Shown: positions 370 to 54,968 of the stretch, piece by piece
Position numbering within the stretch: position 1 is the first letter of the stretch
Layout: every line of letters starts with the position of its first letter
IMG/VR virus record: IMGVR_UViG_3300027708_003081
Strand: one strand, 5' to 3'
DNA from: a virus
Lineage: Duplodnaviria; Heunggongvirae; Uroviricota; Caudoviricetes
Length of the DNA: 64,000 bases
Notes under the pieces: generated by a model
Seen by the model: only the letters and a program-made list of their open reading frames with translations
What the model was told of the DNA's origin: nothing
Databases searched by the model: none
Position numbers and translations under genes: made by a program

Positions 370-645
370 TTAATCGCATCTATTTTTATAAAAATTTTTT
401 AATTCCTTATAGAACATCGTGTTAATAACATCAAACACATAATCAATATTATTTGATGTTACCCAATCAAGTTCTCCATCCTCCTGCATACCCAAATATA
501 ATCCGTCATATAAGAAATCATCAAATGAGCTATAATCACAAATATAGTTATAAGCATCCGAAGATTTGATATACTCCCTTAATTCTTTTATTCTTCTCAT
601 AACTTGCAATCTTTCTGCTTGTGTTTCCGTTATAATGTATTTCAT
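370..645 (-). CDS. Hypothetical protein with MKYIITETQAE leader (tandem paralog array)
   Basis: ORF track; first 11 aa identical to the two neighbouring ORFs. Confidence 0.8.
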   Translation of the reverse strand: MKYIITETQAERLQVMRRIKELREYIKSSDAYNYICDYSSFDDFLYDGLYLGMQEDGELDWVTSNNIDYVFDVINTMFYKELKNFYKNRCD

Positions 646-646
646 A

Positions 647-970
647 TTAATCTTCGCAATCGTTTATTAAATCTTCATAATGGTTAATTATATCATCACC
701 CATTCTTTTTTTAATTAATGCAATCATATAATTATAAAGTTGGAAAAATGTATCTGAACGTTTCCCAAAATCAAAATAGTTTAATAGATAAGCATTAGCA
801 CAACTTCTTGCAACAGAATCCATATAATCTTCTTTGCTTTCATAATGGCAGGGGTTATATAAATCAATTCCTTCCTCAACTATTTCACTTATCCAATCCC
901 AATCCTCGCCATTAATCCTACGAAGAAGTTTAATCCTTTCAGCCTGTGTTTCCGTTATAATGTATTTCAT
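647..970 (-). CDS. Hypothetical protein with MKYIITETQAE leader (paralog of 972..1295)
   Basis: Aligns end-to-end with 972..1295 (EDW.WIS.IV, NPC.YES.EDY.DSV, SDTF, RMGDDI, DLINDCE). Confidence 0.85.
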   Translation of the reverse strand: MKYIITETQAERIKLLRRINGEDWDWISEIVEEGIDLYNPCHYESKEDYMDSVARSCANAYLLNYFDFGKRSDTFFQLYNYMIALIKKRMGDDIINHYEDLINDCED

Positions 971-971
971 A

Positions 972-1295
972 TTAATTTTCGCAATCGTTTATTAAGTCTC
1001 CATAATACTCCATTATATCATCACCCATTCTTTGTTTAATTAACAATTTAATATAATCAGAAAGACTCAAAAAAGTATCTGAACCTTCCTCAGAACCAAG
1101 ATAGCTAACTAGATAAGTATTTGCAGTAGTTCTTGATACTGAATCCAAATAATCTTCTTCGCTTTCATAATTGCAGGGGTTAAACATATTAACCAAATCA
1201 TCAACTATTTGACTTATCCAATTCCAATCCTCACTATAAATCCTACGAAGAATTTTAATTTTTTCTGCTTGTGTTTCCGTTATAATGTATTTCAT
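972..1295 (-). CDS. Hypothetical protein with MKYIITETQAE leader (paralog of 647..970)
   Basis: ORF track; TATTTATA on the coding strand at 1301-1308. Confidence 0.85.
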   Translation of the reverse strand: MKYIITETQAEKIKILRRIYSEDWNWISQIVDDLVNMFNPCNYESEEDYLDSVSRTTANTYLVSYLGSEEGSDTFLSLSDYIKLLIKQRMGDDIMEYYGDLINDCEN

Positions 1296-1300
1296 ATCAT

Positions 1301-1323
1301 TATAAATATACGAGATATTTATA
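1301..1323. promoter_or_regulatory. Back-to-back TATTTATA late-type promoters for divergent genes
   Basis: TATAAATA at 1301-1308 (TATTTATA on minus, 5 nt before ATG 1295) and TATTTATA at 1316-1323 (5 nt before ATG 1329). Confidence 0.6.
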
Positions 1324-1328
1324 TCATT

Positions 1329-1856: not shown

Positions 1857-2272
1857 TGAACTTACAAGAAACAATAAGAAGAGTATTAATTGAAATGGAT
1901 GTAAATAAATCCAAAGATTGGGGAGATTCCAAAGAAAAATTGGAAAGAACTTTTAAATTCAAAGATTTTAATGACTCAATTGATTTTGTTAATAAGGTTG
2001 CAAAGATAGCTGAAAAACAAAACCATCATCCCGACATCACAATAAATTATAATAAGGTTACAATATCAATAACAGACCACGAAAAAGGTGGAGTCTCCGA
2101 TAAATGTCGTAAACTTGTTAAATCTATTAACGAATTAGAAAACCCTCACAAAGAAGAACAAAATGAATATGCAAGAACCTTGAAAAATGCAAGAAGACAG
2201 GGAGTTGGAACAAGATTCTCCAAAACAGCAATAAACGTTAATCCTATGAGATTTAGACCATATAATAGATAA
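1856..2272 (+). CDS. phhB: Pterin-4a-carbinolamine dehydratase-like protein with MNLQETIRRVLIE leader and basic tail
   Basis: LERTFKFKDF...FVNKVA.IAE.QNHHPDI.I.YNKV.I...DH..GG is the PCD/PhhB signature. Confidence 0.8.
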   Translation: MNLQETIRRVLIEMDVNKSKDWGDSKEKLERTFKFKDFNDSIDFVNKVAKIAEKQNHHPDITINYNKVTISITDHEKGGVSDKCRKLVKSINELENPHKEEQNEYARTLKNARRQGVGTRFSKTAINVNPMRFRPYNR

Positions 2273-2276
2273 CACT

Positions 2277-3116
2277 ATGAACTTACAAGAAACAATAAGA
2301 AAAGTATTAAGAGAAGAGCACGAAGATATGCATAGAAAGTTTAATATGTTTATGAGAAGAAGAGATTCCCAAATTAAGGATTCAATTAAAGGTTCTATGA
2401 AGATAATTTTAGCGGCAGTAAATGCAAATGGTATTGATAAATCAAAGGATTTTGTTATAGATGCAATATGTAATTCGGCGGTTATATTATTTTTTAATGA
2501 AAATAATTTGGATTTGGGTGGGGAAGAGTATTATGAATTGGCGAAGATATATCTAAAGAAATATTATAGTGATTATATTATAGAAAAATTAAAATCCGAT
2601 AAAGAAGAAATGAGAGAACAAATAGACAGAGTAAAGAATTGGATACAATTTTTGAATGAAAACATATCTAACACAGAATTCATAATTGATGATAATCAAT
2701 TTAAACTTTTGGTTGATAACGAATTGGTTAGTTCTTGTTATTTTACTATATTAGATAATTATGTTGGTTTACATGGTATGATTACTTACGAAAAGTTTTT
2801 AAAAATGGGATATGGTAAAATTTTAATGAAAAATATTTTTAATCATGTTAAAAATAAATTACATATGAATTTGATAAAATTATCAGTAATGAATGATAAT
2901 CATAGAGCGATAGATTTCTATAAAACGTTAGGATTTATAAGTGAAAAGGACAATAAAAATAAAATGAATCATACTATGTATAAAGAATTGGGTTCAGATA
3001 AAGAAGAAATGAAAGAGGCGGAACTAACAGAAAAGTGTTGGAAGGGATATACTCAAAAAGGAATGAAAACTATGTTTGGGAAGAGATATCCAAATTGTGT
3101 AAAGAAGAAGAAATAA
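2277..3116 (+). CDS. Multi-module protein: leader, hypothetical domain, GNAT acetyltransferase, C-terminal CWKGY..PNCV motif
   Basis: GNAT motifs KMGYGKILM, LSVMNDNHRAIDFYKTLGF; terminal EKCWKGYTQKGMKTMFGKRYPNCVKKKK. Confidence 0.7.
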   Translation: MNLQETIRKVLREEHEDMHRKFNMFMRRRDSQIKDSIKGSMKIILAAVNANGIDKSKDFVIDAICNSAVILFFNENNLDLGGEEYYELAKIYLKKYYSDYIIEKLKSDKEEMREQIDRVKNWIQFLNENISNTEFIIDDNQFKLLVDNELVSSCYFTILDNYVGLHGMITYEKFLKMGYGKILMKNIFNHVKNKLHMNLIKLSVMNDNHRAIDFYKTLGFISEKDNKNKMNHTMYKELGSDKEEMKEAELTEKCWKGYTQKGMKTMFGKRYPNCVKKKK

Positions 3117-3413
3117 CTACTTATTACATCTATCAGTAAAGAAGTCCATAATAGTTTTCTTGTGTACTGAATTAATATACTTCTCCATAACATCAAATAT
3201 TTCCGTCCACTCATCAGAGCTATCATCAATATCTCCGAAGTAATTATAATACATTTGTTCTATAACCCATCCACTAACAACAGCATAAAAATAATTTTTA
3301 TCCTCATCACATAATCCATACTCCATATATATTTTATCATAATCCTCCAATCTATATTTAACTAAATTATCAATTGCCCAAAGTCTTCTGAGTGCTCTAA
3401 TGTAATTATTCAT
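3117..3413 (-). CDS. Hypothetical protein, related to the RR..C..YF..C family at 370-1295 but without leader
   Basis: RRL..CD..Y..V..YYNYFGD.DD.SD..C.K pattern. Confidence 0.7.
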   Translation of the reverse strand: MNNYIRALRRLWAIDNLVKYRLEDYDKIYMEYGLCDEDKNYFYAVVSGWVIEQMYYNYFGDIDDSSDEWTEIFDVMEKYINSVHKKTIMDFFTDRCNK

Positions 3414-3425
3414 AATAGATAAATA

Positions 3426-3746
3426 TTATACTGATGATAATTCATTTTTAATATAGTGGGCGGTTTTCTTATACTCCTCATATAACTTATCAGTATATTT
3501 GGATAGAACATATTGTTTCAATTCGAATTCAACTTTACTATCCCATTCTTTTAAGAAATCTTTAGTTATGAAACTCATTAATGCGTGACGTAAAATAGAA
3601 TTAAGAACAGATTGTCTATAATTATTCCAATCACCATAATTTATGGGGGTTTTACTTACCGGACTGACGGCAGGATAAACTACTGTAATCATAAAAATAA
3701 CAAAATCATCCACATCATTTAATCTTCTTCTTATTCTAATTTCCAT
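3426..3746 (-). CDS. Hypothetical protein
   Basis: ORF track; TATCTTTA promoter-like motif upstream. Confidence 0.65.
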   Translation of the reverse strand: MEIRIRRRLNDVDDFVIFMITVVYPAVSPVSKTPINYGDWNNYRQSVLNSILRHALMSFITKDFLKEWDSKVEFELKQYVLSKYTDKLYEEYKKTAHYIKNELSSV

Positions 3747-5251: not shown

Positions 5252-5255
5252 AATA

Positions 5256-6442: not shown

Positions 6443-6766
6443 ATGGGAAAATTTATAATTACAGAAGAAGAAAAAAAACATATAAAGAGTTTATATGAAC
6501 AACAAACAACGGGTACGACACCAAATTCATTATATATGGCTGCGGGAACAAAGTTTTGTTTTTTTGGAAGTTGTAGGGTGGATATAAAAGTCATAAATAA
6601 AGAAACAAGTCAAATCATAACAAGTAAAGGTGCTGAGGGAAAAGATGTTAATCAATTATATTCTCAAGTAATTAAATTGGTTCAGGATGAATTGGCGACC
6701 CAAAAGATAACGGGTGTTACATTACCAACATTAGAACAACTTCAAGATACAAGTCCAAAGAAATAA
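6443..6766 (+). CDS. Hypothetical protein with MGKFIITEEEKKHI leader
   Basis: Start revised to ATG 6443 after TATTTATA. Confidence 0.75.
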   Translation: MGKFIITEEEKKHIKSLYEQQTTGTTPNSLYMAAGTKFCFFGSCRVDIKVINKETSQIITSKGAEGKDVNQLYSQVIKLVQDELATQKITGVTLPTLEQLQDTSPKK

Positions 6767-6989: not shown

Positions 6990-7343
6990 ATGAAAAAGAT
7001 TATAAGATTAACGGAATCTGATTTGAATAGGATTATTAAAAGAGTTATAAATGAGAGCGATAATAAATTATTTTTTTTAAGGAGACTTAGAAAATATGAT
7101 TCTTTAATTGATTATAAGATGAAAGAATCTTTAAAATCGTATTGTAAGGGAGGGACAAAAAAGGAATATGTTCAGTGGGTTAAGGACTTTATATTGGTAT
7201 CAATTGAAAGAAATGATTTTGATAATATCCATTTTTATTTTGGTGTTGATGAGTTTAGTGAAGATACTAAAAAATTCGAAAAATTTTTTGATTTACTATA
7301 TTCTAAAAAGATAGAATCATATTACGATAATAATTGTAAGTGA
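6990..7343 (+). CDS. Hypothetical protein with MKKIIRLTESDL leader (RR..C..YF..C family)
   Basis: Start revised to ATG 6990 after TATTTAT. Confidence 0.8.
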   Translation: MKKIIRLTESDLNRIIKRVINESDNKLFFLRRLRKYDSLIDYKMKESLKSYCKGGTKKEYVQWVKDFILVSIERNDFDNIHFYFGVDEFSEDTKKFEKFFDLLYSKKIESYYDNNCK

Positions 7344-7854: not shown

Positions 7855-8199
7855 ATGAAAATTATTATAACGGAATCTCAATTTATTCAAATCACAATAG
7901 AACTTCAAAATGAGTTGGATAAATTAAAACGTGAGAATGAATCTGTAATTAATAGGTATGAGGAAATAAAAGATAAGTTAAATAAAATTAATTATCTTGA
8001 GAATCCAAAGTATACATATACGGTTGATTCAAGGGAGAACATAATTGCAAAGGTTAAAGGACCCGACAATAATTGGATTAGTATTCATTTGGGTCCAAAG
8101 AAAAGATTTGATAAATTACCTCCAGGTGAATTTGAGGATAAGATTAAAGATATTCTTATTGATAAGTTTATTAAAAAATTCCCCCCTTATTCAACGTAG
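7855..8199 (+). CDS. Hypothetical coiled-coil protein with MKIIITESQ leader
   Basis: ORF track; TATTTAT upstream. Confidence 0.75.
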   Translation: MKIIITESQFIQITIELQNELDKLKRENESVINRYEEIKDKLNKINYLENPKYTYTVDSRENIIAKVKGPDNNWISIHLGPKKRFDKLPPGEFEDKIKDILIDKFIKKFPPYST

Positions 8200-8241: not shown

Positions 8242-8550
8242 ATGGCAAGAATAACAAAATTAACGGAAGCAGATTTAAATAGATTGGTTAAAAAGGTAAT
8301 TAAGGAAGATGAGGAATTTTCACCTAAATGGAATGTAACCAACCGCCCTGAAAAAGAAAAATCTTTTGATGAATATAGAAGTGAACTCGGTCGTCATTTG
8401 GAAACCCTCAAACAAACTTATAATGATTTAATTAATATTTCAATGGAGGCTGCAGATAATGATTCATTATCTGATGAAGAAAAAGATGAAATAGAATCCG
8501 CGATTGAAGCGTCACTTGATGACCCTTATGGAATGTTTTTGCAAGACTAA
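8242..8550 (+). CDS. Acidic hypothetical protein with MARITKLTEADL leader
   Basis: Start revised to ATG 8242; followed by terminator 8571-8598. Confidence 0.8.
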   Translation: MARITKLTEADLNRLVKKVIKEDEEFSPKWNVTNRPEKEKSFDEYRSELGRHLETLKQTYNDLINISMEAADNDSLSDEEKDEIESAIEASLDDPYGMFLQD

Positions 8551-8908: not shown

Positions 8909-8938
8909 TTATCTGTATTTTTTATTATATTTATTGTT

Positions 8939-9514
8939 ATGAAAATTATTAAATTAACTGAATCTGATTTGGGTAAAATTGTTAGGAGGGTTATAAAGGA
9001 ATCACAGGATGAGACTATTGTATATTTGCACGGATTGGATGCTGTCCCTATTGGGGTTAAAATAAATTTCTTATATTCTCTTGGGTATGATGTATTTGCT
9101 CCCCATCTTAATTATCGTAATGAGGATTCTAATGAAATATTTGATTGGATGGTGGATGAGATATCCAAAAGAAATGTGAAGTTAATTATTGGTTCATCTA
9201 TGGGTGGGTTTTTGGCATATTGTTTATGTAAGAAATTGGGTATTGATGGATTGTTATTTAATCCTGTATTGGACCCAAATATACCTATGGATAGATTTGG
9301 AATATCATTTGATACAAGTGGAAAGTATAATCCTAATATTGAAATTGTTATGGGTGAGATTGATGAACTTCTTCCTCCGCAGTTAACTATGGATTGGATT
9401 GAGTCAAATGTTGGGGACAATAATTATGATAAACATATTGAACCTAATATGGGACATAGGGTTCCTATTGATGTGTTTGTTAAATGGATTGAAAAAAGGT
9501 TATCGTCAAAATAG
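8939..9514 (+). CDS. Alpha/beta hydrolase (YqiA-like esterase) with MKIIKLTESDL leader
   Basis: YLHGL oxyanion motif, IGSSMGG nucleophile elbow, LLFNP, DELL Asp, MGHR His. Confidence 0.85.
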   Translation: MKIIKLTESDLGKIVRRVIKESQDETIVYLHGLDAVPIGVKINFLYSLGYDVFAPHLNYRNEDSNEIFDWMVDEISKRNVKLIIGSSMGGFLAYCLCKKLGIDGLLFNPVLDPNIPMDRFGISFDTSGKYNPNIEIVMGEIDELLPPQLTMDWIESNVGDNNYDKHIEPNMGHRVPIDVFVKWIEKRLSSK

Positions 9515-11936: not shown

Positions 11937-12461
11937 ATGAAAATTATTATAACGGAAGAGCAGTATAGAAGATTAGTTAATCAAGATGAGATTGATAGAA
12001 TACTTGATAAGATGAATGAGTTGGGTAAAGATTCATTAACACCCGAAGAATTACATATTTTACAAAATCCTGATGAGAAAATTGAACCTGAAGAAGATGA
12101 AGTAGAACTTGATGATGCTGAAAAAATAATTTTTTCAAGTGAGGTGATGTCCAGATTAATAAGTAGTGGATTTATTGATTATAAAGACATTATGATACTT
12201 GGAGATGAAAAAGACGGAGACACCGTATTTCAAATATTTCAAGTAAGTAATATAATTGACGAAGATGGATATGGTTTTGAATATTTTGATGCGGGAAATA
12301 AATTAAGATTAACAACATCACAAGAAAAAGATGAATTACTTGTTGAAGGAATGAATGAAGGAAACACCGGTGATTCTTTAATGAAAGTTATGGAATACAT
12401 AAAAGAAAATTGGGAACCAAATATTGGATTACCTGTTCACGTTGAAGGAATAGATTTTTAA
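11937..12461 (+). CDS. Acidic hypothetical protein with MKIIITEEQ leader and EIDRILDKM..G..SLT.EE motif
   Basis: ORF track. Confidence 0.8.
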   Translation: MKIIITEEQYRRLVNQDEIDRILDKMNELGKDSLTPEELHILQNPDEKIEPEEDEVELDDAEKIIFSSEVMSRLISSGFIDYKDIMILGDEKDGDTVFQIFQVSNIIDEDGYGFEYFDAGNKLRLTTSQEKDELLVEGMNEGNTGDSLMKVMEYIKENWEPNIGLPVHVEGIDF

Positions 12462-12472: not shown

Positions 12473-12718
12473 ATGAAAAAAATAGTAAAACTTACAGAAT
12501 CTGATTTAGAGAGAATAACAAAAAGAATTATTCAAGAGGAAGAAAAAGAAAAAATGTCGTTAGTTAAAAAACTAATGCAAAAACTTAAAGGTGTATCTAA
12601 CGAACAGATAGAATACAACGCCAAACACGGATTACCTTGGGATTGGAGAGGTAGTAAAGAAGGATTCTACGAGAAGATGGAAGGTAAGGTAGGTAGAGGT
12701 AGTACAGGTTCAAACTAA
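12473..12718 (+). CDS. Hypothetical protein with MKKIVKLTESDL leader
   Basis: ORF track. Confidence 0.8.
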   Translation: MKKIVKLTESDLERITKRIIQEEEKEKMSLVKKLMQKLKGVSNEQIEYNAKHGLPWDWRGSKEGFYEKMEGKVGRGSTGSN

Positions 12719-13279: not shown

Positions 13280-13999
13280 ATGAGAAAGAAAAACATATTA
13301 ATTTCTGAACAACAACTTGCTGATTTAATGAATGATTTATTAGGTGGTGTGATTAACCCAACTATGGTAGATAGCGACAAAACTAAAAAAAATAATATTT
13401 CTACTAAATCATCAGGTTCAAGTAATGTAAGTTCAGATTTTGATGAAATGGTTAAAAAAGTAATAGATAATCTTGAAGGAGGGTACTACCACCCTGATAT
13501 GTTAAAAGATGGTAGAGTTAAAGATAGTAGATATGGTAATTCAGGTGAAACTATGTTTGGTATTGATAGGAAGGCGGGTGGAGATATAAATACAACTCCT
13601 GCTGGTGAAAAGTTTTGGGGAATAATAGATGATGCAAATGCTAGGTCTACTTGGAAATGGAATTATATGGGAGGACCACTTGAATCAAAATTAAAGGATA
13701 TTGTCCCTCAAATAATTAAACCACAATTTGATAAAAATTCTAATTTATATTTAACACCCGAATCAAGGGAAATTGTTAATGGTAATCCCGGATTATTATT
13801 TAATTTTATTTATGCTACTTGGAATGGACCAGGATGGTTCAAGAAATTTGCATCACAAATAAATAAAAAAGTTGAATATGGTGTTACAGACCCTGAAGAA
13901 TTATTAAAAGCTGCTATTGATATTAGAAAAAATAGTGGAAATAGTTTAGTTTCACAAGGAGCTTCAAAAATAGAAAGAATTACAAATACATTAGTTTAA
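13280..13999 (+). CDS. GH108-like lysozyme with ILISEQQ leader
   Basis: VIDNLEGGY catalytic motif and GETMFGI; start revised to ATG 13280. Confidence 0.65.
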   Translation: MRKKNILISEQQLADLMNDLLGGVINPTMVDSDKTKKNNISTKSSGSSNVSSDFDEMVKKVIDNLEGGYYHPDMLKDGRVKDSRYGNSGETMFGIDRKAGGDINTTPAGEKFWGIIDDANARSTWKWNYMGGPLESKLKDIVPQIIKPQFDKNSNLYLTPESREIVNGNPGLLFNFIYATWNGPGWFKKFASQINKKVEYGVTDPEELLKAAIDIRKNSGNSLVSQGASKIERITNTLV

Positions 14000-14033: not shown

Positions 14034-14408
14034 TTATCTCTTATTATATTTTGATTTCAAAAACTTATCTAATGGTAAATCATCATCTTTGATGGGGCTC
14101 CACTCTTTCTCACTATCTTTATCCCATCTTTTACTATCACCAATTCCAATACTACTTGGCCTATGTTTACTCATATGTGATTTAAACTTCATTTTATTTT
14201 GAAAATCATCATCATCGCTAAATTTATCCTCAATATCAAAGCCATAATCTACAATATCATCATCCTCATTATCAGGGAATTCTGTTGATTTATTAGGAAT
14301 ATCTTCAAAATCATCATCAATCACTTCAAAACCTTCTTCACTTTCTTTAATCATTCTTTTAACCAATCTAACTAATTCAGATTCAGTTAATCTTACTATT
14401 TTACTCAT
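14034..14408 (-). CDS. Acidic hypothetical protein with MSKIVRLTESEL leader
   Basis: ORF track. Confidence 0.8.
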   Translation of the reverse strand: MSKIVRLTESELVRLVKRMIKESEEGFEVIDDDFEDIPNKSTEFPDNEDDDIVDYGFDIEDKFSDDDDFQNKMKFKSHMSKHRPSSIGIGDSKRWDKDSEKEWSPIKDDDLPLDKFLKSKYNKR

Positions 14409-14448: not shown

Positions 14449-15240
14449 ATGAAATATATTGTTACAGAAGAACAATACAAACTTATATCTGAAATTAGAG
14501 TACAAGAAGGAACTTGGGATATTACCGATAGTTATGTTGATATTTTTAATATTGTTAAAGAAAGAGTTAATGAAAAGAATATAAAAAATGCAGTTAAAGA
14601 TTACATTAAAAATGAACTTGGATATAGTCTGACTAAATTTAAGGGTTCTGACGCCAAAAAATATACCAAACTATTTCCTGATAATATTGAAGGTGATTAT
14701 AATGATATCCCATCAGAATTAAAAACAAAAGATGTTTTATCAAATCTTGCGTATTATCTTGCAAAGAAATTTTTGAGAATTAAAAGATTGAGGGGATTAG
14801 ATTGTTTTATTGAACAACCAAGATGGGGCGGCAAGCAATACTTCTTTTTTGACCCAGAACTTGAACAGTCAATAGGTTCAATTGCGGTTAAAGAAACTTC
14901 AGAATATTTTGGTGATATTAAATTTCCTAAAAATTCTTGGGCAGTTTCAACTTCAGGATTAGATAAAGAGGCTAAAGGAACTGGGTTAGGTAAACAAATG
15001 TATTTGGCGGTAATAGATGACGTTGATGTACTTTTTTCTGATAATTTTTTATATCTTGAATCTTTAAATATTTGGGTTAATGTATTACCTAATTATGTTT
15101 ATGTTGGTGCAGTATTTAATAATGTTCATAAAAAACCAAGAAGATTATCACCAAAAACAAAAATACTTGACCACGAAGAAGTGAAAAGATATTTTGCAAC
15201 TAAAAACCCAGAATTAATTAAGATAAAAACTTCAAAATAA
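14449..15240 (+). CDS. Hypothetical protein with MKYIVTEEQ leader; C-terminal half GNAT-like
   Basis: LDKEAKGTGLGKQMY resembles the acetyl-CoA-binding motif A. Confidence 0.65.
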   Translation: MKYIVTEEQYKLISEIRVQEGTWDITDSYVDIFNIVKERVNEKNIKNAVKDYIKNELGYSLTKFKGSDAKKYTKLFPDNIEGDYNDIPSELKTKDVLSNLAYYLAKKFLRIKRLRGLDCFIEQPRWGGKQYFFFDPELEQSIGSIAVKETSEYFGDIKFPKNSWAVSTSGLDKEAKGTGLGKQMYLAVIDDVDVLFSDNFLYLESLNIWVNVLPNYVYVGAVFNNVHKKPRRLSPKTKILDHEEVKRYFATKNPELIKIKTSK

Positions 15241-15360: not shown

Positions 15361-15633
15361 ATGCCACGAACAATATTAATAAAAGAATCCGAATTAGTCA
15401 AATTAATTGAAACTGCGATGGATTTGGATAAATACACCCAATTACCTAACTTTTCTTCAAACGACGGAAATAAGGACGCCGAACAGTCTGTAGAAGAGAT
15501 TATAGACAAGTTAAAAGAACTACTTAATATGTTACAATCAGGTAAAGAAGTTGATACGACATTAAAAGGTAGAATATATAGAAATTTAGATGATTTAAAT
15601 AAAACTTTCTCAAGTATAAAATACCAATCATAG
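15361..15633 (+). CDS. Hypothetical protein with ILIKESELVKLIE leader
   Basis: ORF track; TATTTATA upstream. Confidence 0.75.
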   Translation: MPRTILIKESELVKLIETAMDLDKYTQLPNFSSNDGNKDAEQSVEEIIDKLKELLNMLQSGKEVDTTLKGRIYRNLDDLNKTFSSIKYQS

Positions 15634-17322: not shown

Positions 17323-17817
17323 ATGAATAAAAGATTTACACTCACAGAAGAAGAAAGAAAAGAAATAAGAAAGAATTATTTCTTTGAACAAAAAACCTCC
17401 GAAGAAAGAAGGTTTTGCCATAAAGGAAACACCAAGTCATTAGATGAGGTTATGGGGGAAGATGAATATGAGGACTATGTTGATGGAATTAAATTAAGAA
17501 AAAATGGTGTTAGAGGTTTAACCGATGCGTTAGAAACTCTTAGGTCATACCATACTTTAGAAAAAGTTAATGATGGTGGAGTTCATTTGGCTAATAATGT
17601 TATGAATACTTTGAAGGCTTATAAACCATACAATTATTTTGAAGAACAAAGTAAAGAATGTAATAGAGCGATGGATAAAATAATTGAATTATATAAAGAA
17701 GATGAACACGGAGAAGAATTGGTTAGTGATATTGAAAAAATAATGTCTTTTCATCATATCGACCCAAGAGCAAAAGAATTTTTAAAACATTCTTTATCAA
17801 TTATTAAAGGAGATTAA
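17323..17817 (+). CDS. Hypothetical protein with FTLTEEERKEI leader
   Basis: ORF track; TATTTATA at 17311. Confidence 0.8.
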   Translation: MNKRFTLTEEERKEIRKNYFFEQKTSEERRFCHKGNTKSLDEVMGEDEYEDYVDGIKLRKNGVRGLTDALETLRSYHTLEKVNDGGVHLANNVMNTLKAYKPYNYFEEQSKECNRAMDKIIELYKEDEHGEELVSDIEKIMSFHHIDPRAKEFLKHSLSIIKGD

Positions 17818-18625: not shown

Positions 18626-18916
18626 ATGTTCATTAGCGAAGAAGAAAAAAAACAAATTTTATCAAAATATCAAGATAATACTTCAGATGAGTTCTTAAGA
18701 CATCTTATACGGGCTTATCCTGTTGATTCTCAAAAAATATTGGATAGGGTAATTCATTTCATCACAATTGATGATAAAAGAAAAATATTAACCGGAAATA
18801 AAAAACTTATGGTTAATAAAATTTTTAATTTAGAGGATGGTAAATGGAATGATATTGATAAGAGTACTTTAAGAAGAACAATCAAAAAATATATTGACGG
18901 GAACCTGTTAAATTAA
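18626..18916 (+). CDS. Hypothetical protein with MFISEEEKKQIL leader
   Basis: Start revised to ATG 18626. Confidence 0.75.
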   Translation: MFISEEEKKQILSKYQDNTSDEFLRHLIRAYPVDSQKILDRVIHFITIDDKRKILTGNKKLMVNKIFNLEDGKWNDIDKSTLRRTIKKYIDGNLLN

Positions 18917-19397: not shown

Positions 19398-20336
19398 ATG
19401 AAAAAAATTATTAGGTTAAGTGAATCTGAGTTAGTATCTTTGGTGAAAAGAACTATTATGGAAGATAATAATACTGAAAAAAAACCAAATTTAAAGAAAT
19501 TAACCTATAACTCTTTAACTGATTCTCAGAAAGATAAAATTAAAGGTTCGGGTGTGAAAATTTTTAGTGATATTAAAAATTATATTGAACCTAATACTAA
19601 TAGAAAAATAAATTATTGGTTAGAAAAGCATGGTTTACAATTAAAAGTTCCTAGTGCTGAGTTTATTAAAAAAAATATAGAGGATATTAATTTTGTTTTT
19701 GATAATTTAGAATTATCAAATTCAAAAAGAAATGATTTAAAAGAAAATTTAGATTTTTTAGAATTACAATTAGTTAATCCAAATTCAAAATTTATTGTTT
19801 TATTTCACGAAAAAGACGACGAATGGAGTATTGTTAATATGTTTGATAATAATATTATTCTGTGGATTAATTTAATTAACAATAGAATTGATTCTAATAC
19901 AGAAATAAATGTTGATGATTTTTTAGAAGAATATTATAGTGGTGGTTCGGACTCAATGGCTGCTCACGATTTATTAAGAGCGATATTGATTGATAGAGAA
20001 AATTATAAACAAACTATTTTTTCAAAAACTTGGGGTGGAGGACAAGAAGTTGAAAATAAATTTTTTAATCAGTTAAGACAATTAGGTGTGAGTGAAGAAA
20101 ATTTAAGGATTTTTTCAGGCGGTGGTAATTTTGTAGATAGAGCAGGATTTGATGGTGCGATGAAATGTAGAAATATTTGGTTTTCAATACAAGTTAAATC
20201 AAATCAGAATGATGCGTTAAAATCAATACCTTATAAAGGTATTTCAGTATTTCCATCTGAAGGAGAGTTTTATTATTTTCACGATAAAAAGGTACCACCA
20301 AAACCAATTTCATCACTAGTTAAAAAATGTATTTAA
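19398..20336 (+). CDS. Protein with MKKIIRLSESEL leader; C-terminal PD-(D/E)XK nuclease-like domain
   Basis: G.E.E...FVDRAGFDG...SIQVKS pattern. Confidence 0.55.
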   Translation: MKKIIRLSESELVSLVKRTIMEDNNTEKKPNLKKLTYNSLTDSQKDKIKGSGVKIFSDIKNYIEPNTNRKINYWLEKHGLQLKVPSAEFIKKNIEDINFVFDNLELSNSKRNDLKENLDFLELQLVNPNSKFIVLFHEKDDEWSIVNMFDNNIILWINLINNRIDSNTEINVDDFLEEYYSGGSDSMAAHDLLRAILIDRENYKQTIFSKTWGGGQEVENKFFNQLRQLGVSEENLRIFSGGGNFVDRAGFDGAMKCRNIWFSIQVKSNQNDALKSIPYKGISVFPSEGEFYYFHDKKVPPKPISSLVKKCI

Positions 20337-35293: not shown

Positions 35294-36577
35294 ATGGGAA
35301 AATTTTTTATAACTGAAGGAGAAAAAAGAAATATACAACAAATGTATGGTGTACAAAAACATCATGCAGTTTTGGAAACCATTACTGATGAAACTTCTGA
35401 TTTTGTTATTAAAGAATGGCTTTCACCTGATGAAAATTTTTGTATTTTTTTAGATGAATTATATGATATTAGAAATAAAACCAAATTAGGTAATATTTTT
35501 GAAAATTTTGAAAACTTTAAGTTTTTTTTAAAACATTCTTTTGAATCTGTATCAGGCATTTCGAAACAAATAAAAGAAAGTGTTTTAAATGATTTGGATA
35601 AGTTAATAATAACTGAATCAATTCAAGATATTTCTTTTCTTAAGGAATCCGTAAGAGAAATTATAAAAGAAAATTGGTTAGGAGATGCTTGGGATGCAAC
35701 AAAAAACGCTGTAAAGGGTTTTGGTGATTGGACAGTTAAAAAAGGTGAGGAAGCGGTTAGTGGAGTTAAAACTTTTGTATCAAAAGCGTATTCAGGTGGA
35801 AAACAATTAGTTTCCGCAATTTCTAATGGAGAATGGACTAAAATACTTGATATAATAGGTAAAGGTGTTATATATCTTGCTCGTAGTATCAGAAGTGCTA
35901 TGTATCACCCTGTCGGTATGATTTTAGATGGTATTTTGGTTGCGTCGGGAATTGGTAAAGCGGTTCAGTGGATACCTTGGGCAATAATTGTGGCTCTTGA
36001 TATCTACGAAATTGCAACTAATAATTACGAAGAAGAAATGCCGTTATGGTTAAGAATACTTATGGTTGGTTGTGATGCTTTAGGTTTAGTTGTTGCAGGT
36101 GTTACCGCAGTTGGTGCTAGAAAAGCTATTCAAGCGGGAACTGCAGGTTTAAAAAGTACCGAGCAATTAGCCGCAGCGATGGCGAAAAATCCTGAGTTGA
36201 AATCAACTATTATAACGATGGAGAAAAATATAGATAAAGTTCCTGGATTCCTTCAAAAAGCAATTGATTATCTTAAACCAAGATTTCCAAGTGGTGCAAA
36301 ATTTATTGAGGGAATAATGGGAAATGTATCTTCTTTTATACAAAAAGTCAAATCTTCATTACCAACGGTCGCAGGAACAAAACAATTTGCAAAAGTTGCA
36401 GGAAAAGAAACTTTAAAAACTGCTGGTATTGTTTATGGTTTGGAAACAGGAATAAAAAAAGGTGCTCAGATGTATTATGGTATTGGTGATGATGAAATGA
36501 AACTAGCGGAACTATCACAACCATCAATAAAAAATTATGAAGAAAAATACGGTAGTTTTGCAGATGGATGGGGTTAA
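35294..36577 (+). CDS. Probable virion or membrane-active protein with MGKFFITEGEK leader and hydrophobic helices
   Basis: Amphipathic W-repeat region and several Gly/Ala-rich hydrophobic segments. Confidence 0.7.
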   Translation: MGKFFITEGEKRNIQQMYGVQKHHAVLETITDETSDFVIKEWLSPDENFCIFLDELYDIRNKTKLGNIFENFENFKFFLKHSFESVSGISKQIKESVLNDLDKLIITESIQDISFLKESVREIIKENWLGDAWDATKNAVKGFGDWTVKKGEEAVSGVKTFVSKAYSGGKQLVSAISNGEWTKILDIIGKGVIYLARSIRSAMYHPVGMILDGILVASGIGKAVQWIPWAIIVALDIYEIATNNYEEEMPLWLRILMVGCDALGLVVAGVTAVGARKAIQAGTAGLKSTEQLAAAMAKNPELKSTIITMEKNIDKVPGFLQKAIDYLKPRFPSGAKFIEGIMGNVSSFIQKVKSSLPTVAGTKQFAKVAGKETLKTAGIVYGLETGIKKGAQMYYGIGDDEMKLAELSQPSIKNYEEKYGSFADGWG

Positions 36578-36600: not shown

Positions 36601-37566
36601 ATGAAACAAACATTAAAAGAACAACTGGAAAGATATTTAACTCTTTCAAGTTATAATACAAAATTAACATTATCTGAAAATTTAAAAAATGTTGAAAATA
36701 GTTTAAATGAGGCGGGTCCTTCTCCAGCCGCAACATTAAGAGATGTTGAGGCAGCATTCAAATCCGTTGAATCATTAAGAAATGAGATGAAGATTACAAA
36801 AGAAATTGATGAAATTGCAAAATTACTTAAGATGGATGCTAAAAGTTTTGAAAAACAATTAGCAAAGGCTTTTGAGGAAGATATAAAAAATGGGTTTCCT
36901 AAAGGAACACTTGGTCCTGCAGCTAAAGATGTGTCTAAAGTAGATGCATTAAGAAAAATTGCTGCGGATAGTAAAATAAAGGGAGGTCCTTTAACTGCGG
37001 ATGAAGTTAAGGTAATTAAAGATGATATCACCGCAACAAATAAATTAAAAGCTGCTAAATTTGAACCAAAAGCACCACGAACGCAAAAAGATATTGATGA
37101 CGGAGGAAAAGGAATTAAACAATTGCCACCTGAAGGTAAAAACTGGAATTGGAAAAAAATGTTAAAATGGGGCGCAGGAATAGGACTATCTATCGCGGCT
37201 GTTTCTTGGATTTGGACTAAACTACACGGAGAAGAACCACCACCACCTCCACCAGATGTTACACCAGTACCTCAGCCAAGTCAATATAAATCTTGTCCTG
37301 ATACTTTCCCAATTGCTATGTATTGTAAAAATGAAACAATTAGAAAAGTTCAAGGATGTTTAGGTGTTGCATCAGATAGTGCGTTTGGACCTAAAACACA
37401 AGCAGCTTTAGAAGCCAAAGGACTTACAGGAACAGAAATTACACAAGATACTGTAGATAAAGTTTGTGGTGGTGGAACAACACCATCTCCATTTCAAGAT
37501 GATAATGAGGAAGATACTACTTCAAATCAATCAACACAATCGGCGGATGATGCTGATGAGGCTTAA
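36601..37566 (+). CDS. Protein with LKEQLER leader, TM segment, poly-Pro linker and peptidoglycan-binding-like domain
   Basis: WGAGIGLSIAAVSWIW; IRKVQGCLGV.SDSAFGPKTQAAL. Confidence 0.7.
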   Translation: MKQTLKEQLERYLTLSSYNTKLTLSENLKNVENSLNEAGPSPAATLRDVEAAFKSVESLRNEMKITKEIDEIAKLLKMDAKSFEKQLAKAFEEDIKNGFPKGTLGPAAKDVSKVDALRKIAADSKIKGGPLTADEVKVIKDDITATNKLKAAKFEPKAPRTQKDIDDGGKGIKQLPPEGKNWNWKKMLKWGAGIGLSIAAVSWIWTKLHGEEPPPPPPDVTPVPQPSQYKSCPDTFPIAMYCKNETIRKVQGCLGVASDSAFGPKTQAALEAKGLTGTEITQDTVDKVCGGGTTPSPFQDDNEEDTTSNQSTQSADDADEA

Positions 37567-37580: not shown

Positions 37581-38720
37581 ATGAAAAAATTTATAATTTC
37601 AGAAACAGAAAAAAAAGAAATATTAGATAAACATAAAAGTTTTAAATCTATTTTAGAAAATAGATTAAAAAATAAATTAGTTTTATCCGAGCAGATAACC
37701 GCACCAACAGGTGACGACCTTATCAAAAAAGCCAAAAATGTTTGTCCCACATTAAAAAATGGTGCTTTTGTTAGAGTAAGTGGAAGTCGTGCAATTAAGA
37801 TTACCGCAGCCAAAGACGGCCCGTTAAGTGCTGTTACCAACAAACCAAAATATGTTACAGGTGATGTTCTTGTATATAAAAGTGATATGACTTATGATGT
37901 ATATGATGGAACAAAGGCAGCAAATAATAATTGGGTTAAAAAAGGAACATATAAGTGGAAATGTGCGGGATTAACTGCACAGGCGGATGATTTTAGTGCG
38001 ACTGCAGGTAAACAAGAAGTTGACGCAGGTGGTTGGATGACGTATGATGAGGCCAAAGCTGCGGGTATAAACCTTACTGACCCTAAATTCTACGAGCAAA
38101 AGACAATTAATGGTGTACAATATTTCAAAAAGAAAGGAATTACTGTAGGTGGTGCTGGCTCACAAGAACAAACTGAGGTTATTGATTTTTTAACCAATAG
38201 ATACGGAGCAAGATTCCAAAGAAAATTAAAACAACCATCACAAGGTTTTTGTTGGGCATTCCAAGGAGAAGAGCCTTTGAGTGAGCCGAAATGGTCTTTA
38301 GAAAATGTTGTTGGAGGTGCAGAATATGGTGTGACAGAAGGGTTAAAAATATTTGTTAGTCCTGAATGTTTAAGTAAAATTAGACAAGCATCAAAAGATG
38401 TTGTTAGTACTGAATCAGGATATAGAAAAATTGATAATGACACCTGTAAAGACTTTTTAAAGAATTATATGGAAGCATATGAAAATGGTGTAGACGCAAC
38501 AACAACCGCATTTACTCAAATGAAAAAAGACGTTCAATCTTGTAAGAGAAAATTCTGTTCTAAAAACATTTCAAAAACTCAAGGAAAATGTCAAGGTAGT
38601 TGGAAATTAGGTCTTATGGGTGGTTCAAGAAAAATGGACGACATTATTGATTTCTTCTCAGGGGAAAATAATTCAATCGGTACTTCACCTGAAAGAACTA
38701 ATCCATATAGAATAACATAA
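37581..38720 (+). CDS. Cys-containing hypothetical protein with MKKFIISETEKKEIL leader
   Basis: ORF track; LVLSEQ junction. Confidence 0.8.
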   Translation: MKKFIISETEKKEILDKHKSFKSILENRLKNKLVLSEQITAPTGDDLIKKAKNVCPTLKNGAFVRVSGSRAIKITAAKDGPLSAVTNKPKYVTGDVLVYKSDMTYDVYDGTKAANNNWVKKGTYKWKCAGLTAQADDFSATAGKQEVDAGGWMTYDEAKAAGINLTDPKFYEQKTINGVQYFKKKGITVGGAGSQEQTEVIDFLTNRYGARFQRKLKQPSQGFCWAFQGEEPLSEPKWSLENVVGGAEYGVTEGLKIFVSPECLSKIRQASKDVVSTESGYRKIDNDTCKDFLKNYMEAYENGVDATTTAFTQMKKDVQSCKRKFCSKNISKTQGKCQGSWKLGLMGGSRKMDDIIDFFSGENNSIGTSPERTNPYRIT

Positions 38721-45242: not shown

Positions 45243-46472
45243 TTATTTAAGTAATTTTTTTATTCTTTCTATATTCTCGTTAATTTTTTCATCTTCTTTA
45301 TCCACCTCTTTTTCTTTATATGTGGGACTCATTTTTGTTAACCAATTAGGTGTTGGTTGTTCTTTGTCAGTTGCTCTTGCCCATCTTTTTTCAATCCTTT
45401 CACCTGTTTTTTTATCGTATTTGTCTTTAAATGGATTTAATAACTTGAAAGGCGCTTGTATTAATGCAGCCATTAATGGGTCTTTGTATGTTTTAGATTT
45501 TTTATATTCTTTTTCTTTATCGTCATCTTTGTCTTTATCATCGTCTGTATCTACGTTAAGATATTTTGTTATTGATACCTTATCATAAGTAGAGTTGTAA
45601 AGTGAAATAATAACATCATCATTTGTTTCACCTATTATTTTTCCTTTACGTACTTTTTCACCATCAGAAACGTAAGGTTTGGTTATATTGCAAAATTCTA
45701 AATAATATTTTTTCTCTTTAATAAGATGTTGAATTACAATTTTATTAACACAAGACGTACTAGAATCTTTTTTATTATTTACAATACCATCGACAGGACT
45801 TTTAATTTGTGAATTACTATTTTTTGGTAATTTAATTGTGCCCGAACTTAAAACTTTATCTTTACCGAATTCTGAATATATTTTTTCTTCTTTTAAACCA
45901 AATGAAGCACCTATAGATTTTATAAAATTTCTTTCTATATCATCTGTAGGAGTACTTCCTGATTGTGATGTTGCAAAGTCTTTTGAAGGTGAGAGAGGTT
46001 CTGAAATTGGGGTATCTTGTTTTTCTGTTGGGGTACCTGTTGTATTTGAAACGTGAACGTGATTATCGTGACCGGGAAATCCAAAAGTTAATACTGCTTT
46101 AGGGTTACCAGATTCTCTATTTTTAGTATAACCCATTTTTATCAATTCACCTACAAGTTTGTCGGCGTCTCCTCTATTTGAGTTACTAACTGCTTTACCA
46201 TTAATTATTGCAATATCAACCGCATTACCTGTTGTATGTCTTGATTTACCTGTTTTGTGTCCTGAAACTGCTGTCGTGACATCAACCTTTACATTAGCTC
46301 TTTCAGCTGCAGTTTGAACATCCTTTAAAAGTGCGACATTAATATTATCTTTAGATGGTGTACTACTACCTACGACTCTATCTTTAAAATCAACATTTGC
46401 GTATACATCATCCGCCTCTGAAATATTCATAAGTGTTTTTAACCTAGTAATATTTTCATTTAATTTTTTCAT
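45243..46472 (-). CDS. Cell-wall peptidase: leader, M15-like zinc peptidase, degenerate M23-like domain
   Basis: SRHTTGNAVDI...HDNHVHVS; SPVDG.V...V..G.KV.KG..IG. Confidence 0.7.
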   Translation of the reverse strand: MKKLNENITRLKTLMNISEADDVYANVDFKDRVVGSSTPSKDNINVALLKDVQTAAERANVKVDVTTAVSGHKTGKSRHTTGNAVDIAIINGKAVSNSNRGDADKLVGELIKMGYTKNRESGNPKAVLTFGFPGHDNHVHVSNTTGTPTEKQDTPISEPLSPSKDFATSQSGSTPTDDIERNFIKSIGASFGLKEEKIYSEFGKDKVLSSGTIKLPKNSNSQIKSPVDGIVNNKKDSSTSCVNKIVIQHLIKEKKYYLEFCNITKPYVSDGEKVRKGKIIGETNDDVIISLYNSTYDKVSITKYLNVDTDDDKDKDDDKEKEYKKSKTYKDPLMAALIQAPFKLLNPFKDKYDKKTGERIEKRWARATDKEQPTPNWLTKMSPTYKEKEVDKEDEKINENIERIKKLLK

Positions 46473-49294: not shown

Positions 49295-50413
49295 GTGAGA
49301 TTTATATTAGAAGAAGATGATGAAGACATAACCCTATATAAAGCGTTAAGATTATATACAAGGGGTAAAATTGATGAGGATGAACTTGATGGTGCCGATA
49401 AAGACATCTATAGAATCTCCCGTGCAAGTAATCCTGCACAATCAGAAATCACATTTGAATTTAGTGATGATGAAAAAATATTTGAATTATTGGGATTAGA
49501 TGAAGATGACGGATGGTTTGCGAGAAGGGTTATGGATTCATACTCAAATATTGATATTGAAGCTTATGATAGTATGTATGATGATTTTATTCAGGGGTAC
49601 GGCTCACTTTTTTATAACTTTAATAAAGAGAATTTGAAAAAACTACAAGAAATTTCACAAATGATTATTGGAAAAAAAATTGAATTAAGTATCGAATCGG
49701 ACAACTCTCTTTTGGCGAAAACATTAGATGAACTTTTTAGAAATGAAGCGAGTAATATGATTGATTATTTTCATACATATCTTAATGAAGAAATTAGAAT
49801 AACCGCCAAAGAGTCAATCAGTACAGAATTAAACGACTTTTTAAATAAAATTGGTTTTAAATTATACAGGAATTTTGATATGCTCATATCAACCCCCGCA
49901 AATCTTTTAATGTGGTATTTGAGACTTAATGAGAAAGATTTAGATTTTGAAGATTTATTTACCAAAATTTGTGAATTTACAATGAGTGATTCAAGAGGAA
50001 GAGAAAGACTTGGTGGATGGAATGAAAACCAATATGAGTTTAGAGACTCCGACAATTTTGATGATGTTGCATTTAATAGAGGAATTGAAACCCAACTTGA
50101 TAGAATAATTGAAAAACTTGAGGAAGATGAAGATACTCTTAGAGTTAGTCAGATTTATAAGCAAATATTTGAGATGGGGTATGATTTACAAAGGTGGGAA
50201 GAACTACCGAAAGATAATAAATATAAATTTAGAATTGAAAGCGTTGATAGAGACACATTAAAAATAAGAGTTAAGTTGTCTCAAACTCCTTATGATTGGA
50301 ATGATGAGGGAACACTTAGGAGCGTTGATATTGAAGGATTAAAATTACTATTAAATCACCCCGAATTATTCAAATTGCAAGAAAATATAATTAAAAAATT
50401 AAGAAAGTTTTAA
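49295..50413 (+). CDS. Acidic hypothetical protein
   Basis: ORF track (GTG start after TATTTAT); C-terminal LQENIIKKLRKF resembles the leader motif. Confidence 0.8.
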   Translation: MRFILEEDDEDITLYKALRLYTRGKIDEDELDGADKDIYRISRASNPAQSEITFEFSDDEKIFELLGLDEDDGWFARRVMDSYSNIDIEAYDSMYDDFIQGYGSLFYNFNKENLKKLQEISQMIIGKKIELSIESDNSLLAKTLDELFRNEASNMIDYFHTYLNEEIRITAKESISTELNDFLNKIGFKLYRNFDMLISTPANLLMWYLRLNEKDLDFEDLFTKICEFTMSDSRGRERLGGWNENQYEFRDSDNFDDVAFNRGIETQLDRIIEKLEEDEDTLRVSQIYKQIFEMGYDLQRWEELPKDNKYKFRIESVDRDTLKIRVKLSQTPYDWNDEGTLRSVDIEGLKLLLNHPELFKLQENIIKKLRKF

Positions 50414-51731: not shown

Positions 51732-51789
51732 ATTTATAAATATCTTAAAATATAAAAAAAGGGGAACATTTGTTCCCCTGATAAAAAAA

Positions 51790-53847
51790 TTAATCTACTT
51801 TCTTTTTTCTACTAACTCTTTTTGGTTTTTCCTCAACAACCAACTCTTCATTTATATTGACTTGTTCTTCTGAAACACTCAACATATAAGTTTTGTCCTC
51901 AAATACTTTACCAAGTAACACCTCCTCTGATAAGAAATCCTCAACTTTGTCTTGGATTGCTCTTTTGAGTGGTCTTGCACCAAATGCCTCATCATAACCA
52001 ACCTTGGTGAGATAATCAACAAGCGTATCGTCATATTTGATAACATATTTCATATCCAACAAACGAGTCATCAGTTTATCCAACTCAATTCGGGTGATTT
52101 TCTTAATGTCGTCAGGAGACAACGTGTTGAAGACAATCGTGTCATCAATCCTGTTGATAAATTCAGGTGCGAAAAACGCTTTCATTTCTTTCATCAACAT
52201 TTGTTTTTTGGCTTCTTCGTTGCTATAAGCATTTGAACTAAAACCAATACCTGTTCCGAAGTCCTGAAGTTTTTTAACCCCAAGGTTTGATGTAAGGATA
52301 ATCAAGGTGTTTTTGAAGTTGATTTTTCTACCCAAACTATCTGTTACGTGTCCATCATCAAGTATTTGAAGTAGAACCGTAAACACGTCCTTATGAGCTT
52401 TCTCAACTTCATCAAACAAGATTACCGAATATGGTTTATTTTTAACTTTTTCGGTTAAAAGTCCACCTTCTTCATATCCAACATAACCCGGAGGTGCTCC
52501 TACTAATTTAGATACAGTATGTTTCTCTTGGTATTCAGACATATCAACTCTGATAAGTGAATCCTCACTACCAAAAATCTCTTTTGCCAGTTGCTTTGCC
52601 AGATAGGTCTTACCAACACCTGTTGAACCAAGAAATACAAATGAACCAATTGGACGATTTGGGTCTTTGATACCTAATCTGTTTCTTTTGATAGATTTCG
52701 CAATCTTAATAACCGCATTATTCTGTCCAATAACCTTATCAATTAAGGATTTATCAAGATTTATAAGTGCCTTGTTATCGTCAACATTCATTTTACTCAC
52801 AGGAATATTAGTCATAGTCGATACAACAGAATAGACATCTTCAACAGATATTTTTTGTTTATCTTTTTGCATTTGTTCTTCAAACTTCTTTTTTTCGGCG
52901 TCTAACTTGGTTATAAGTTTTTTCTCTTTGTCTCTTAACTCTGCAGCTTTCTCGTATTGTTGTCTTTTAACAACGTCAACTTTTAATTGTTTCAATTCCG
53001 CAGCTTGTTTTTTCAATACCTCAATTTCTTCAGGAACTTTTAGTTCGGTTTGCATTCTCGCCCCAACTTCATCCAAAATATCAAATGCTTTATCAGGAAA
53101 ACCTCTATCCGTGATATATCTATCGGCAAGTTTAACACAAGCTTCAATTACTTCATCACTATAATTCACCTTGTGATAGGTTTCATATTTTTCTCTTATG
53201 TTTTTGAGAATCTCAATTGTTTCCTTAACTGATGAAGGTTCAACAATTATTTTTTGGAATCTGCGCTCTAATGCACCATCTTTTTCAATATTCTTTCTGA
53301 ACTCATTTAATGTGGTTGCACCGATGCATTGGAGCTCACCACGAGCAAGAGCAGGTTTAAAGATGTTGGAGCCGTCCATAGAACCTGAAGAGTTTCCAGA
53401 ACCAACCAAAGTATGAATCTCGTCAATAAAGACAATAATGTTTGGATTGTTGTGGAGTTCTTCCATAATAACTTTCAATCTTTCCTCAAATTGTCCTCTG
53501 TATTTTGTACCAGCAACAACGGAAGTCAAATCAAGTTCAACAATTCTTTTATCAACCAAATTTCTCGGGCAATCACCATTATAGATTTTAATTGCCAATC
53601 CCTCAACAATTGCAGTCTTACCACAACCTGGGTCACCAATAATAATCGGGTTATTTTTCTTTCTGCGAGATAAAATCTGTGCGATACGTAGGATTTCTTT
53701 TTCTCTACCAATAACAGGGTCTAATTTACCTTGTTCGGCAAGTTTAATTAAATCTCTACTGAAATTATCTAACACAGGTGTATCACTTTCTGATGAGGTT
53801 TTTTTCTTACTCATCATTTTTTCGTCATCATCCATTAGTTCATTCAT
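51790..53847 (-). CDS. clpC: ClpC-type AAA+ unfoldase lacking the N-terminal domain
   Basis: [24 protein letters not shown] coil ([11 protein letters not shown]), [20 protein letters not shown] ClpP-docking loop, GARPLKR. Confidence 0.93.
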
Positions 53848-53899
53848 AATTTATAATTTTTACAAAGGTTCATCAAATTTTGGACATTACCAAACTTTT

Positions 53900-53970
53900 T
53901 GTCAAATTGTCCTGAAAATTTTCTATGTATGTCATTTTGTCATAATATGTTCTGTTGGCACATAACTTGA
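53900..53970 (+). promoter_or_regulatory. Putative sigma54-type promoter of hsp20 with upstream TGTCA-N3-TGTC(A/C) repeats
   Basis: TGGCAC-ATAAC-TTGA at 53956-53970 (GG-N10-GA); repeats at 53900-53912 and 53930-53942. Confidence 0.5.
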
Positions 53971-54017
53971 CTAATCAAAGATAATTAAATAAATTTAAAA
54001 AACAAAACAAAAAAATT

Positions 54018-54404
54018 ATGATTTACTTGAATTCACATTTCGACAAATTTTTTGATGGGTTTTTCGCACAACCTACTTATAGTAATATGGTTGTTAAAAA
54101 TTCAGATAAAGAACCTTATGAGGTAAACTACACCAAAGACGGAGCTTACTTATTCTTTGATGTTCCTGGCTTTAATAAGTCAAATTTAAAAGTAGAAATG
54201 GAAGGGGGAGTTCTTTACCTTGATGGTAAAAGAACATATAAATTAAATGGTGAAGACACAGAAAAAGTTATTTCACAAAAATTTAGAATCGGACAAGAAT
54301 ATAACCCCGACAACATCGAAGCAACAATTGAAGATGGTATACTTACCGTATTTGTTGCAAACTACAAGAAAACGGAAAAGAAAAAAAGAATAAGTTTGTT
54401 GTAA
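54018..54404 (+). CDS. Small heat-shock protein (Hsp20 / alpha-crystallin domain)
   Basis: DVPGFNK..L.V......L...G.R; I.AT.EDGILTV. Confidence 0.88.
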   Translation: MIYLNSHFDKFFDGFFAQPTYSNMVVKNSDKEPYEVNYTKDGAYLFFDVPGFNKSNLKVEMEGGVLYLDGKRTYKLNGEDTEKVISQKFRIGQEYNPDNIEATIEDGILTVFVANYKKTEKKKRISLL

Positions 54405-54464
54405 TCATTAACCCCCTTAAATGGGGGTTTTTAATTTTATGGGGTATTTATTATAAAAAATGTT

Positions 54465-54968
54465 ATGGCAAGGATAATAAGAATAACAGAAAATGATTTA
54501 GTAAAAATTGTTAAAAGAGTAATAAAAGAACAACCTGGTCTTTTTGATGTTGCTTCAGACCCAGCTTTAGCGGGTGTTATCTTTACTCCAGGAATAGAGA
54601 AAGGAGGATGTAAAAAAGAAAATCCTGCAAAAAATAAATTAAGTCAACTTCTTACTTATTGCGGTAAAATTCAACCTGATTCAAATACTACTAAAATAAA
54701 GGCGTGGAATGACAGATTATACAAGTCTATGAAAGGGAGAGGAACAAATGAAGATTTTATTAAAGTATTAGATGAAATTAAAACGGTTAATGAATTATCA
54801 GCAATTTGGAAAACATTTAAATATGATAATCAAAATCTTTGGCGATGGATGGAAGGTGAGATGAAGTATAATTGGGATGACACTTGGAATCGATTAAAAA
54901 AATTCCAAACAATTGCTAAAATACCAACTTGTTTAGAATATAATAAAAATACGACAACAAACTCATAA
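54465..54968 (+). CDS. Annexin-repeat-like protein with MARIIRITENDL leader
   Basis: LYKSMKGRGTNE..I.VL......EL..I...F....L...M.GE resembles the annexin MKG.GT.E repeat. Confidence 0.55.
   Translation: MARIIRITENDLVKIVKRVIKEQPGLFDVASDPALAGVIFTPGIEKGGCKKENPAKNKLSQLLTYCGKIQPDSNTTKIKAWNDRLYKSMKGRGTNEDFIKVLDEIKTVNELSAIWKTFKYDNQNLWRWMEGEMKYNWDDTWNRLKKFQTIAKIPTCLEYNKNTTTNS

Follow-up and report, generated by a model that had tools for sequence, protein, structure and literature searches.

The closest described counterpart of the system reported here is the capsid targeting of bacteriophage T4, in which internal proteins carry a short N-terminal capsid targeting sequence and the prohead protease gp21 cleaves after L/I-x-E (PMC9026906), as a sequence-only reading of the present DNA had stated. 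Ten residues of T4 IPIII are enough for packaging, Alt is trimmed at both termini, and the targeting sequence has been suggested as an evolutionary route bringing new proteins into the capsid (PMC9026906). The DNA analysed here (the window, 64,000 nt) is the minus strand of bases 22676-86675 of the 87,914-base IMG/VR contig IMGVR_UViG_3300027708_003081, which comes from an uncultured T4-type jumbo phage of Bacteroidota of about 300 kb. Of the 143 open reading frames (ORFs) of the entire 88-kb contig, 29 (about a fifth) encode proteins headed by a short leader peptide (tag), and we propose with moderate confidence that these tags form a version of the T4 capsid-targeting and protease-release system that is expanded about ten-fold and divided into several classes.

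The two systems are alike in that a short N-terminal peptide with L/I-x-E stands on otherwise different proteins and that the genome encodes a T4-type head module together with a protease of the gp21 family. They differ in that T4 has one 10-residue sequence on a handful of proteins, whereas here four interchangeable classes of 9-23 residues are found on about 29 proteins in 88 kb, and on about 40 in a complete relative. Unlike in T4, the cargo includes ordinary enzymes, and the function of the tags is putative. The heads of phiKZ, 201phi2-1 and SPN3US contain dozens of proteins, and in many of these a distant homologue of gp21 removes an N-terminal propeptide by cleavage after Glu (PMC9026906). 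All three are jumbo phages too, whereas the phage studied here is T4-type. To our knowledge, the phiKZ-type propeptides share no common sequence and their cut motif is different. The cargo-loading peptides of encapsulins and the encapsulation peptides of microcompartments are short amphipathic helices that are fused through a flexible linker to unrelated enzymes and direct these to a protein shell; they are not removed by a protease, and their shells differ from a phage head. The tags resemble them by analogy, not by membership, in the amphipathic helix and the flexible linker to the cargo, visible in a structural model of the tagged PhhB protein and in the polar stretch that follows the tag. 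No HK97-fold shell other than the phage capsid protein was seen, in analyses that included no search aimed at encapsulin or microcompartment shells.

Leader classes and their members

The sequence-only reading had assigned 26 ORFs of the window to four leader classes. All 26 ATGs give the N-termini that it had described, and the assignment is borne out for 25 of them. Hidden Markov models (HMMs) of the classes give members expectation values (E) of 1e-5 to 1e-15 and the next best ORF E >= 0.02, a separation that is partly circular. Tagged genes crowd one end of the window and account for 22 of the 47 ORFs up to position 20336.

Class A, MKx(I/L)(I/V)TExQ, is supported by its HMM and includes, on the minus strand, 972-1295, the first gene of a tandem array, with TATTTAT 13 nt 5' of its ATG, followed by 647-970 and 370-645 (start MKYIITETQ), which both have a body of a small family designated RRL..D (by iterative profiles). 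The other HMM-supported members are 7855-8199, 11937-12461 (DUF6576 match over residues 11-43) and 14449-15240 on the plus strand, and 32000-32620 on the minus strand, whose homologue in a complete 296-kb relative (G008) is likewise class A. The gene at 13280-13999 (+) begins with NILISEQQ and is a class A variant. Class B, M..I.(R/K)LTESDL..(I/L)VKRVIxE, is also supported by its HMM and comprises 6990-7343 (RRL..D body, by iterative profiles), 8242-8550, 8939-9514 (UPF0227 esterase cargo from residue 27, by Pfam), 12473-12718 (81 residues), 19398-20336 and 54465-54968 on the plus strand, and 14034-14408 on the minus strand; the gene at 15361-15633 (+) has a divergent class B-like start and is a weak member (E 0.2).

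Class C, F.I(T/S)EEEK..I, was confirmed by its HMM for 6443-6766, 17323-17817, 18626-18916, 35294-36577 (427 residues) and 37581-38720 (379 residues), all on the plus strand. Class D had been defined as L(Q/N/K)ExIxR, and stands for three contiguous plus-strand genes: 1329-1856, of the D' sub-type, with the start MNLQENINRIK and a weak ART-PolyVal cargo; 1856-2272, with Pterin_4a (PhhB) cargo, 120 orthologues of which keep the tag; and 2277-3116, with GNAT cargo. An independent HMM, trained solely on orthologues from other samples, recovers all three. The M23 peptidase gene at 45243-46472 (-) has a D'-type start (MKKLNENITRLK) that the independent model misses, and for 36601-37566 (+), the fifth ORF assigned to class D, no model supports membership. 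The same independent model finds a class D-like motif (E 0.001) at 50375-50407 (+), at the C-terminus of ORF 49532-50413. Outside the window, the contig shows three further class A genes upstream and two class B genes adjoining baseplate genes (L004:1238-1849 and L004:1852-2319).

A six-frame scan of the whole 87.9-kb contig with the class motifs as regular expressions, in which no Met was required, gave 31 matches, and 30 of them sit 2-6 residues past the Met of a long ORF. The sole internal match is at window position -28 on the minus strand. It lies in a 231-residue ORF at -327..368 (-), partly outside the window, which holds the only internal class A motif, after an acidic run, and shows a B-like helix near its own start. 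Pfam and PHROGs contain no family for the tags, and in the protein atlas they match unnamed clusters only, with scores below the reliable level. A full-text literature search for LTESDL found no paper, and the paper on moraphages, the probable lineage of the contig, does not mention N-terminal tags (PMC12619734).

Boundaries of the tags and selection

In all classes, hydrophobic residues, followed by Thr/Gln-Glu, precede an amphipathic helix. In 141 of the best 150 metagenomic class B proteins the consensus is MKKI(I/V)RLTESDLxR(L/I)VKRVI(K/N)E, and similarity ends directly after V-I-(K/N)-E, where a polar stretch begins; the ending is I-(K/N)-E in 138 of these 141. Similarity ends at about residue 10 in class A and at L-x-E13 in class D. 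At the sequence level, [IL]xE occurs in the first 12 residues of 28 of the 29 tags, versus 19 of 111 other genes.

Synonymous differences at identical residues affect 0.42 of the codon pairs in class B, against 0.47 expected from random draws of the codon usage of the contig. Synonymous sites of this class are thus near saturation, so selection acts on the peptide and not on the DNA. In class A the value is 0.24, against 0.43 expected, and this low divergence reflects the young tandem array.

Cargo bodies and exchange of tags

The bodies behind the tags had been described as unrelated. BLASTP relates one pair only, but iterative profiles unite six tagged genes, so this description needs correction: five class A genes, the class B gene 6990 and two leaderless paralogues at 3117-3413 (-) and 3426-3746 (-) form the RRL..D family. 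Its body of about 100 residues is found with tag A, with tag B or with no tag, and several untagged ORFs of G008 belong to it too. Homology within the family starts at about residue 10 in proteins with tag A, at residue 24 with tag B and at residue 1 without a tag, and the correction therefore strengthens the case for tag modularity. Among the cargo domains that had been named, PhhB, GNAT, the UPF0227 esterase, M23 and, weakly, ART-PolyVal were recovered, and Pfam found no GH108, M15, annexin or PD-(D/E)XK domain in the tagged ORFs.

Comparison with G008 shows that tags also differ between orthologues. Gene 72824 is class B on the contig, and its G008 orthologue (70% identity) is without the MKTIKLTE strand and begins as a class D-like helix. 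The class C gene 17323 has a class B-like homologue, and the homologue of the class A variant 13280 has a tandem class D tag. Because of these orthologue comparisons, class D looks like class B minus its strand. The four classes are, as far as their sequences tell, variants of one short N-terminal module, interchangeable and droppable.

AlphaFold2 models the tag of the PhhB protein as a helix of its own (residues 3-16), and the linker to the pterin-dehydratase fold has a predicted local distance difference test score (pLDDT) below 50. Outside its Pterin_4a domain the same protein ends in a basic tail that is conserved (about residues 100-138), and a portion of this tail recurs in a 430-residue tagged protein of G008. 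The M23 peptidase has a D'-like C-terminal motif in both phages, INENIERIKKLLK in the protein encoded at 45243-46472 and QENINRIKNLLK in that of G008 (142136-142915). With D'-like motifs at both ends, the protein encoded in the window parallels the double trimming of T4 Alt.

Relation to the TATTTAT motif and to the head genes

Tagged genes had been said to go with the motif TATTTAT, and the enrichment holds: it is found within 40 nt upstream of 17 of the 29 tagged genes versus 33 of the 114 others (P=0.004), and the remaining tagged genes lie on the same strand downstream of a TATTTAT-bearing gene. In G008 the motif precedes 28 of 40 tagged genes versus 67 of 337 others (P=3e-10). It is also upstream of terminase, portal, protease, scaffold and baseplate genes. 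The complementary claim, that genes with host-type TAnnTTTG promoters carry no leaders, does not reach significance (0 of 29 tagged versus 11 of 114 other genes, P=0.12), nor does it in G008.

The T4-type large terminase gene (60121-61884, +) is preceded by TATTTAT, and the T4 gp20-type portal gene is at 61923-63779 (+). Just past the window end (L004) come genes for a prohead protease of the gp21 family, for a scaffold-like protein of 492 residues that is very acidic, and for the gp23 capsid protein. The protease matches Pfam Peptidase_S77 and, with E 2e-11, the T4 gp21 structure 5JBL. The capsid protein has five (I/L)xE sites within its N-terminal 60 residues, and its sequence FLINE/AS is similar to FLTE/AE of T4 and lies near the alignment-predicted place of the T4 maturation site. 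A 230-residue ORF 3' of the portal gene (window 63803-64000 and beyond; L004:10181-10873:-) has 11 (I/L)xE sites, the top density among proteins longer than 200 residues, and is a candidate prohead core protein.

In both phages TATTTAT mostly starts 11-13 nt 5' of the ATG, for example at 8928-8934 for the ATG at 8939, so many mRNAs of these genes may be leaderless. This spacing, together with the reduced synonymous divergence of the class A tandem array, could be taken to mean that the tags are conserved at the nucleic-acid level, whether as a recombination linker that serves gene shuffling, as the operator of a translational repressor or because leaderless mRNAs require them. We find this scarcely credible, given the near-saturated synonymous sites of class B; moreover, untagged genes, that of the terminase included, have the same promoter spacing, and some tagged genes are inside operons.

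Distribution among relatives and in metagenomes

Among 1.84 billion representative proteins, 7,122 clusters (50% identity) match the class B profile at E <= 0.001, nearly all of them at residues 1 to about 28. In G008, models trained only on the present contig match 42 of the 377 ORFs, 40 of them at the N-terminus. This genome also shows about ten scattered paralogues of a 149-residue class A protein, MKIIITENQYKLIKEN (L228-L242, e.g. 238754-242671). In a Tara marine contig of 38% G+C content (L101), several large proteins in a row are rich in cysteine and begin with B-like and C-like tags; none matches Pfam.

A gp21-type protease (PF03420) is present once in each of the five complete genomes with class B tags that were tested. 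A different enzyme could be the partner if the tags were recognition leaders for a modifying enzyme such as a radical-SAM protein, which we consider very improbable: PF04055 (Radical_SAM) is absent from the contig and from three of four complete tag-bearing genomes, although the control genomes all score, and this candidate was rejected for that absence.

Four metagenomic proteins (P0001, P0002, P0005 and P0019) contain the class B motif twice: one copy is N-terminal, and the other is internal or lies at the extreme C-terminus. Their clusters also contain shorter proteins that start at the second copy of the motif, which suggests that the two-motif proteins are fusions of two tagged genes. The internal, double and C-terminal positions would also suit a binding module, as would an amphipathic helix with one hydrophobic face and a Thr-Glu pair apt for a helix N-cap. 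The tag might accordingly be a helix that stays on the protein and, independently of the capsid, docks it to another shared partner: a hub protein, for instance, or a chaperone, or a compartment for replication or assembly. This seems to us somewhat unlikely; it leaves unexplained the sharp loss of conservation after (I/L)xE, the link with the promoter motif of the head genes and the universal gp21-type protease, and no candidate partner was identified.

Proposed capsid targeting

An expanded capsid-targeting system, as proposed above, would work with a module made of an optional hydrophobic strand (MKxII.L), Thr-Glu, a 10-14-residue amphipathic helix ending in (I/L)xE, and a polar linker. Tagged proteins would be made from the same promoter type as the head genes, and the tag would dock them into the prohead scaffold core. 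Cleavage by the gp21-type protease behind the Glu of (I/L)xE would then release the cargo, which would remain in the head and enter the host with the DNA. In T4, an exchange of this P1 Glu for Asp prevents processing but leaves targeting intact. The interpretation given in the sequence-only reading, of a modular capsid-targeting and protease-release system, is thus partly supported.

Several observations weigh against capsid targeting. Compared by eye with MKTYQEFIAE of T4 (the ipII and ipIII N-termini, NC_000866), the tags show no likeness beyond Met-Lys and I-x-E. A helix-only model run against all proteins of the contig gives no score for the scaffold segment EEINQLVKESLSEQ and a non-significant E of 4 for the capsid-protein segment LKVIKED. 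The conserved Thr-Glu could be a helix N-cap, which would make (I/L)xE partly incidental, and the 19 untagged genes with this site near the start point the same way. Many untagged genes also follow TATTTAT, and that this motif is a late promoter is something we infer. Tagged cargo varies no more between phages than other genes do (8 of 29 versus 51 of 114 have a homologue in G008, P=0.14), and its isoelectric points show no bias; both findings depart from the picture given by T4 internal proteins. Enzymes such as PhhB are without obvious use in a capsid. The closest isolates lack the tag: the class B model found none in Flavobacterium phage immuto, Microcystis phage Mel-JY01, Rhodothermus phage RM378 or LR756508; a tblastn search of isolated phages with a 23-residue tag gave no match either, with a query so short that the search is insensitive. 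Co-folding of a class B tag with the scaffold, the protease and the 230-residue core-like protein scored 0.00 and counts neither way.

If the tags load the head, abundant uncultured freshwater and marine jumbo phages deliver dozens of proteins, enzymes included, together with their DNA. Injected proteins could then be predicted from metagenomes by a simple sequence rule, which for class B alone would cover thousands of clusters, and phage engineering would gain a natural collection of packaging tags. The system would also give a view of how genes join or leave the virion by gaining, swapping or losing a tag of 9-23 residues. A further step, which we judge unlikely, would be a combinatorial address code, in which interchangeable labels (strand and helix or helix only; N-terminal, C-terminal or internal) direct roughly one protein in ten to the capsid, the classes set location, copy number or release order, and the prohead protease cuts two-tag proteins into several cargoes.

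Lineage and remaining features

The contig has a GC content of about 30% and an estimated completeness of 29% (CheckV), and its complete relatives are of 294-412 kb. Capsid proteins about 80% identical to its own are found in more than 598 IMG/VR contigs, and the nearest isolate by this protein is Flavobacterium phage immuto, with 38% identity only. A ClpB/ClpC-type double AAA+ ATPase is encoded at 51790-53847 of the window, and the core genes of the moraphage lineage include one for a ClpA-type ATPase (PMC12619734). The contig probably belongs to that lineage, since its size, its Bacteroidota-type host signal, its T4-type core and the ClpA/ClpC-type ATPase fit, an assignment made by features. 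The same ATPases would allow the tag to be a recognition signal, either a degron or an unfolding handle, by which phage Clp machinery sets protein lifetime. This is highly unlikely in our view: we know of no precedent for a Clp tag of such a kind, the tag and the Clp genes are linked only by their co-presence in one genome, and about 10% of the genes, enzymes included, would share a degron without evident need. As a minor point, the stored contig and the window differ in their bases at window positions 16761 and 40566.

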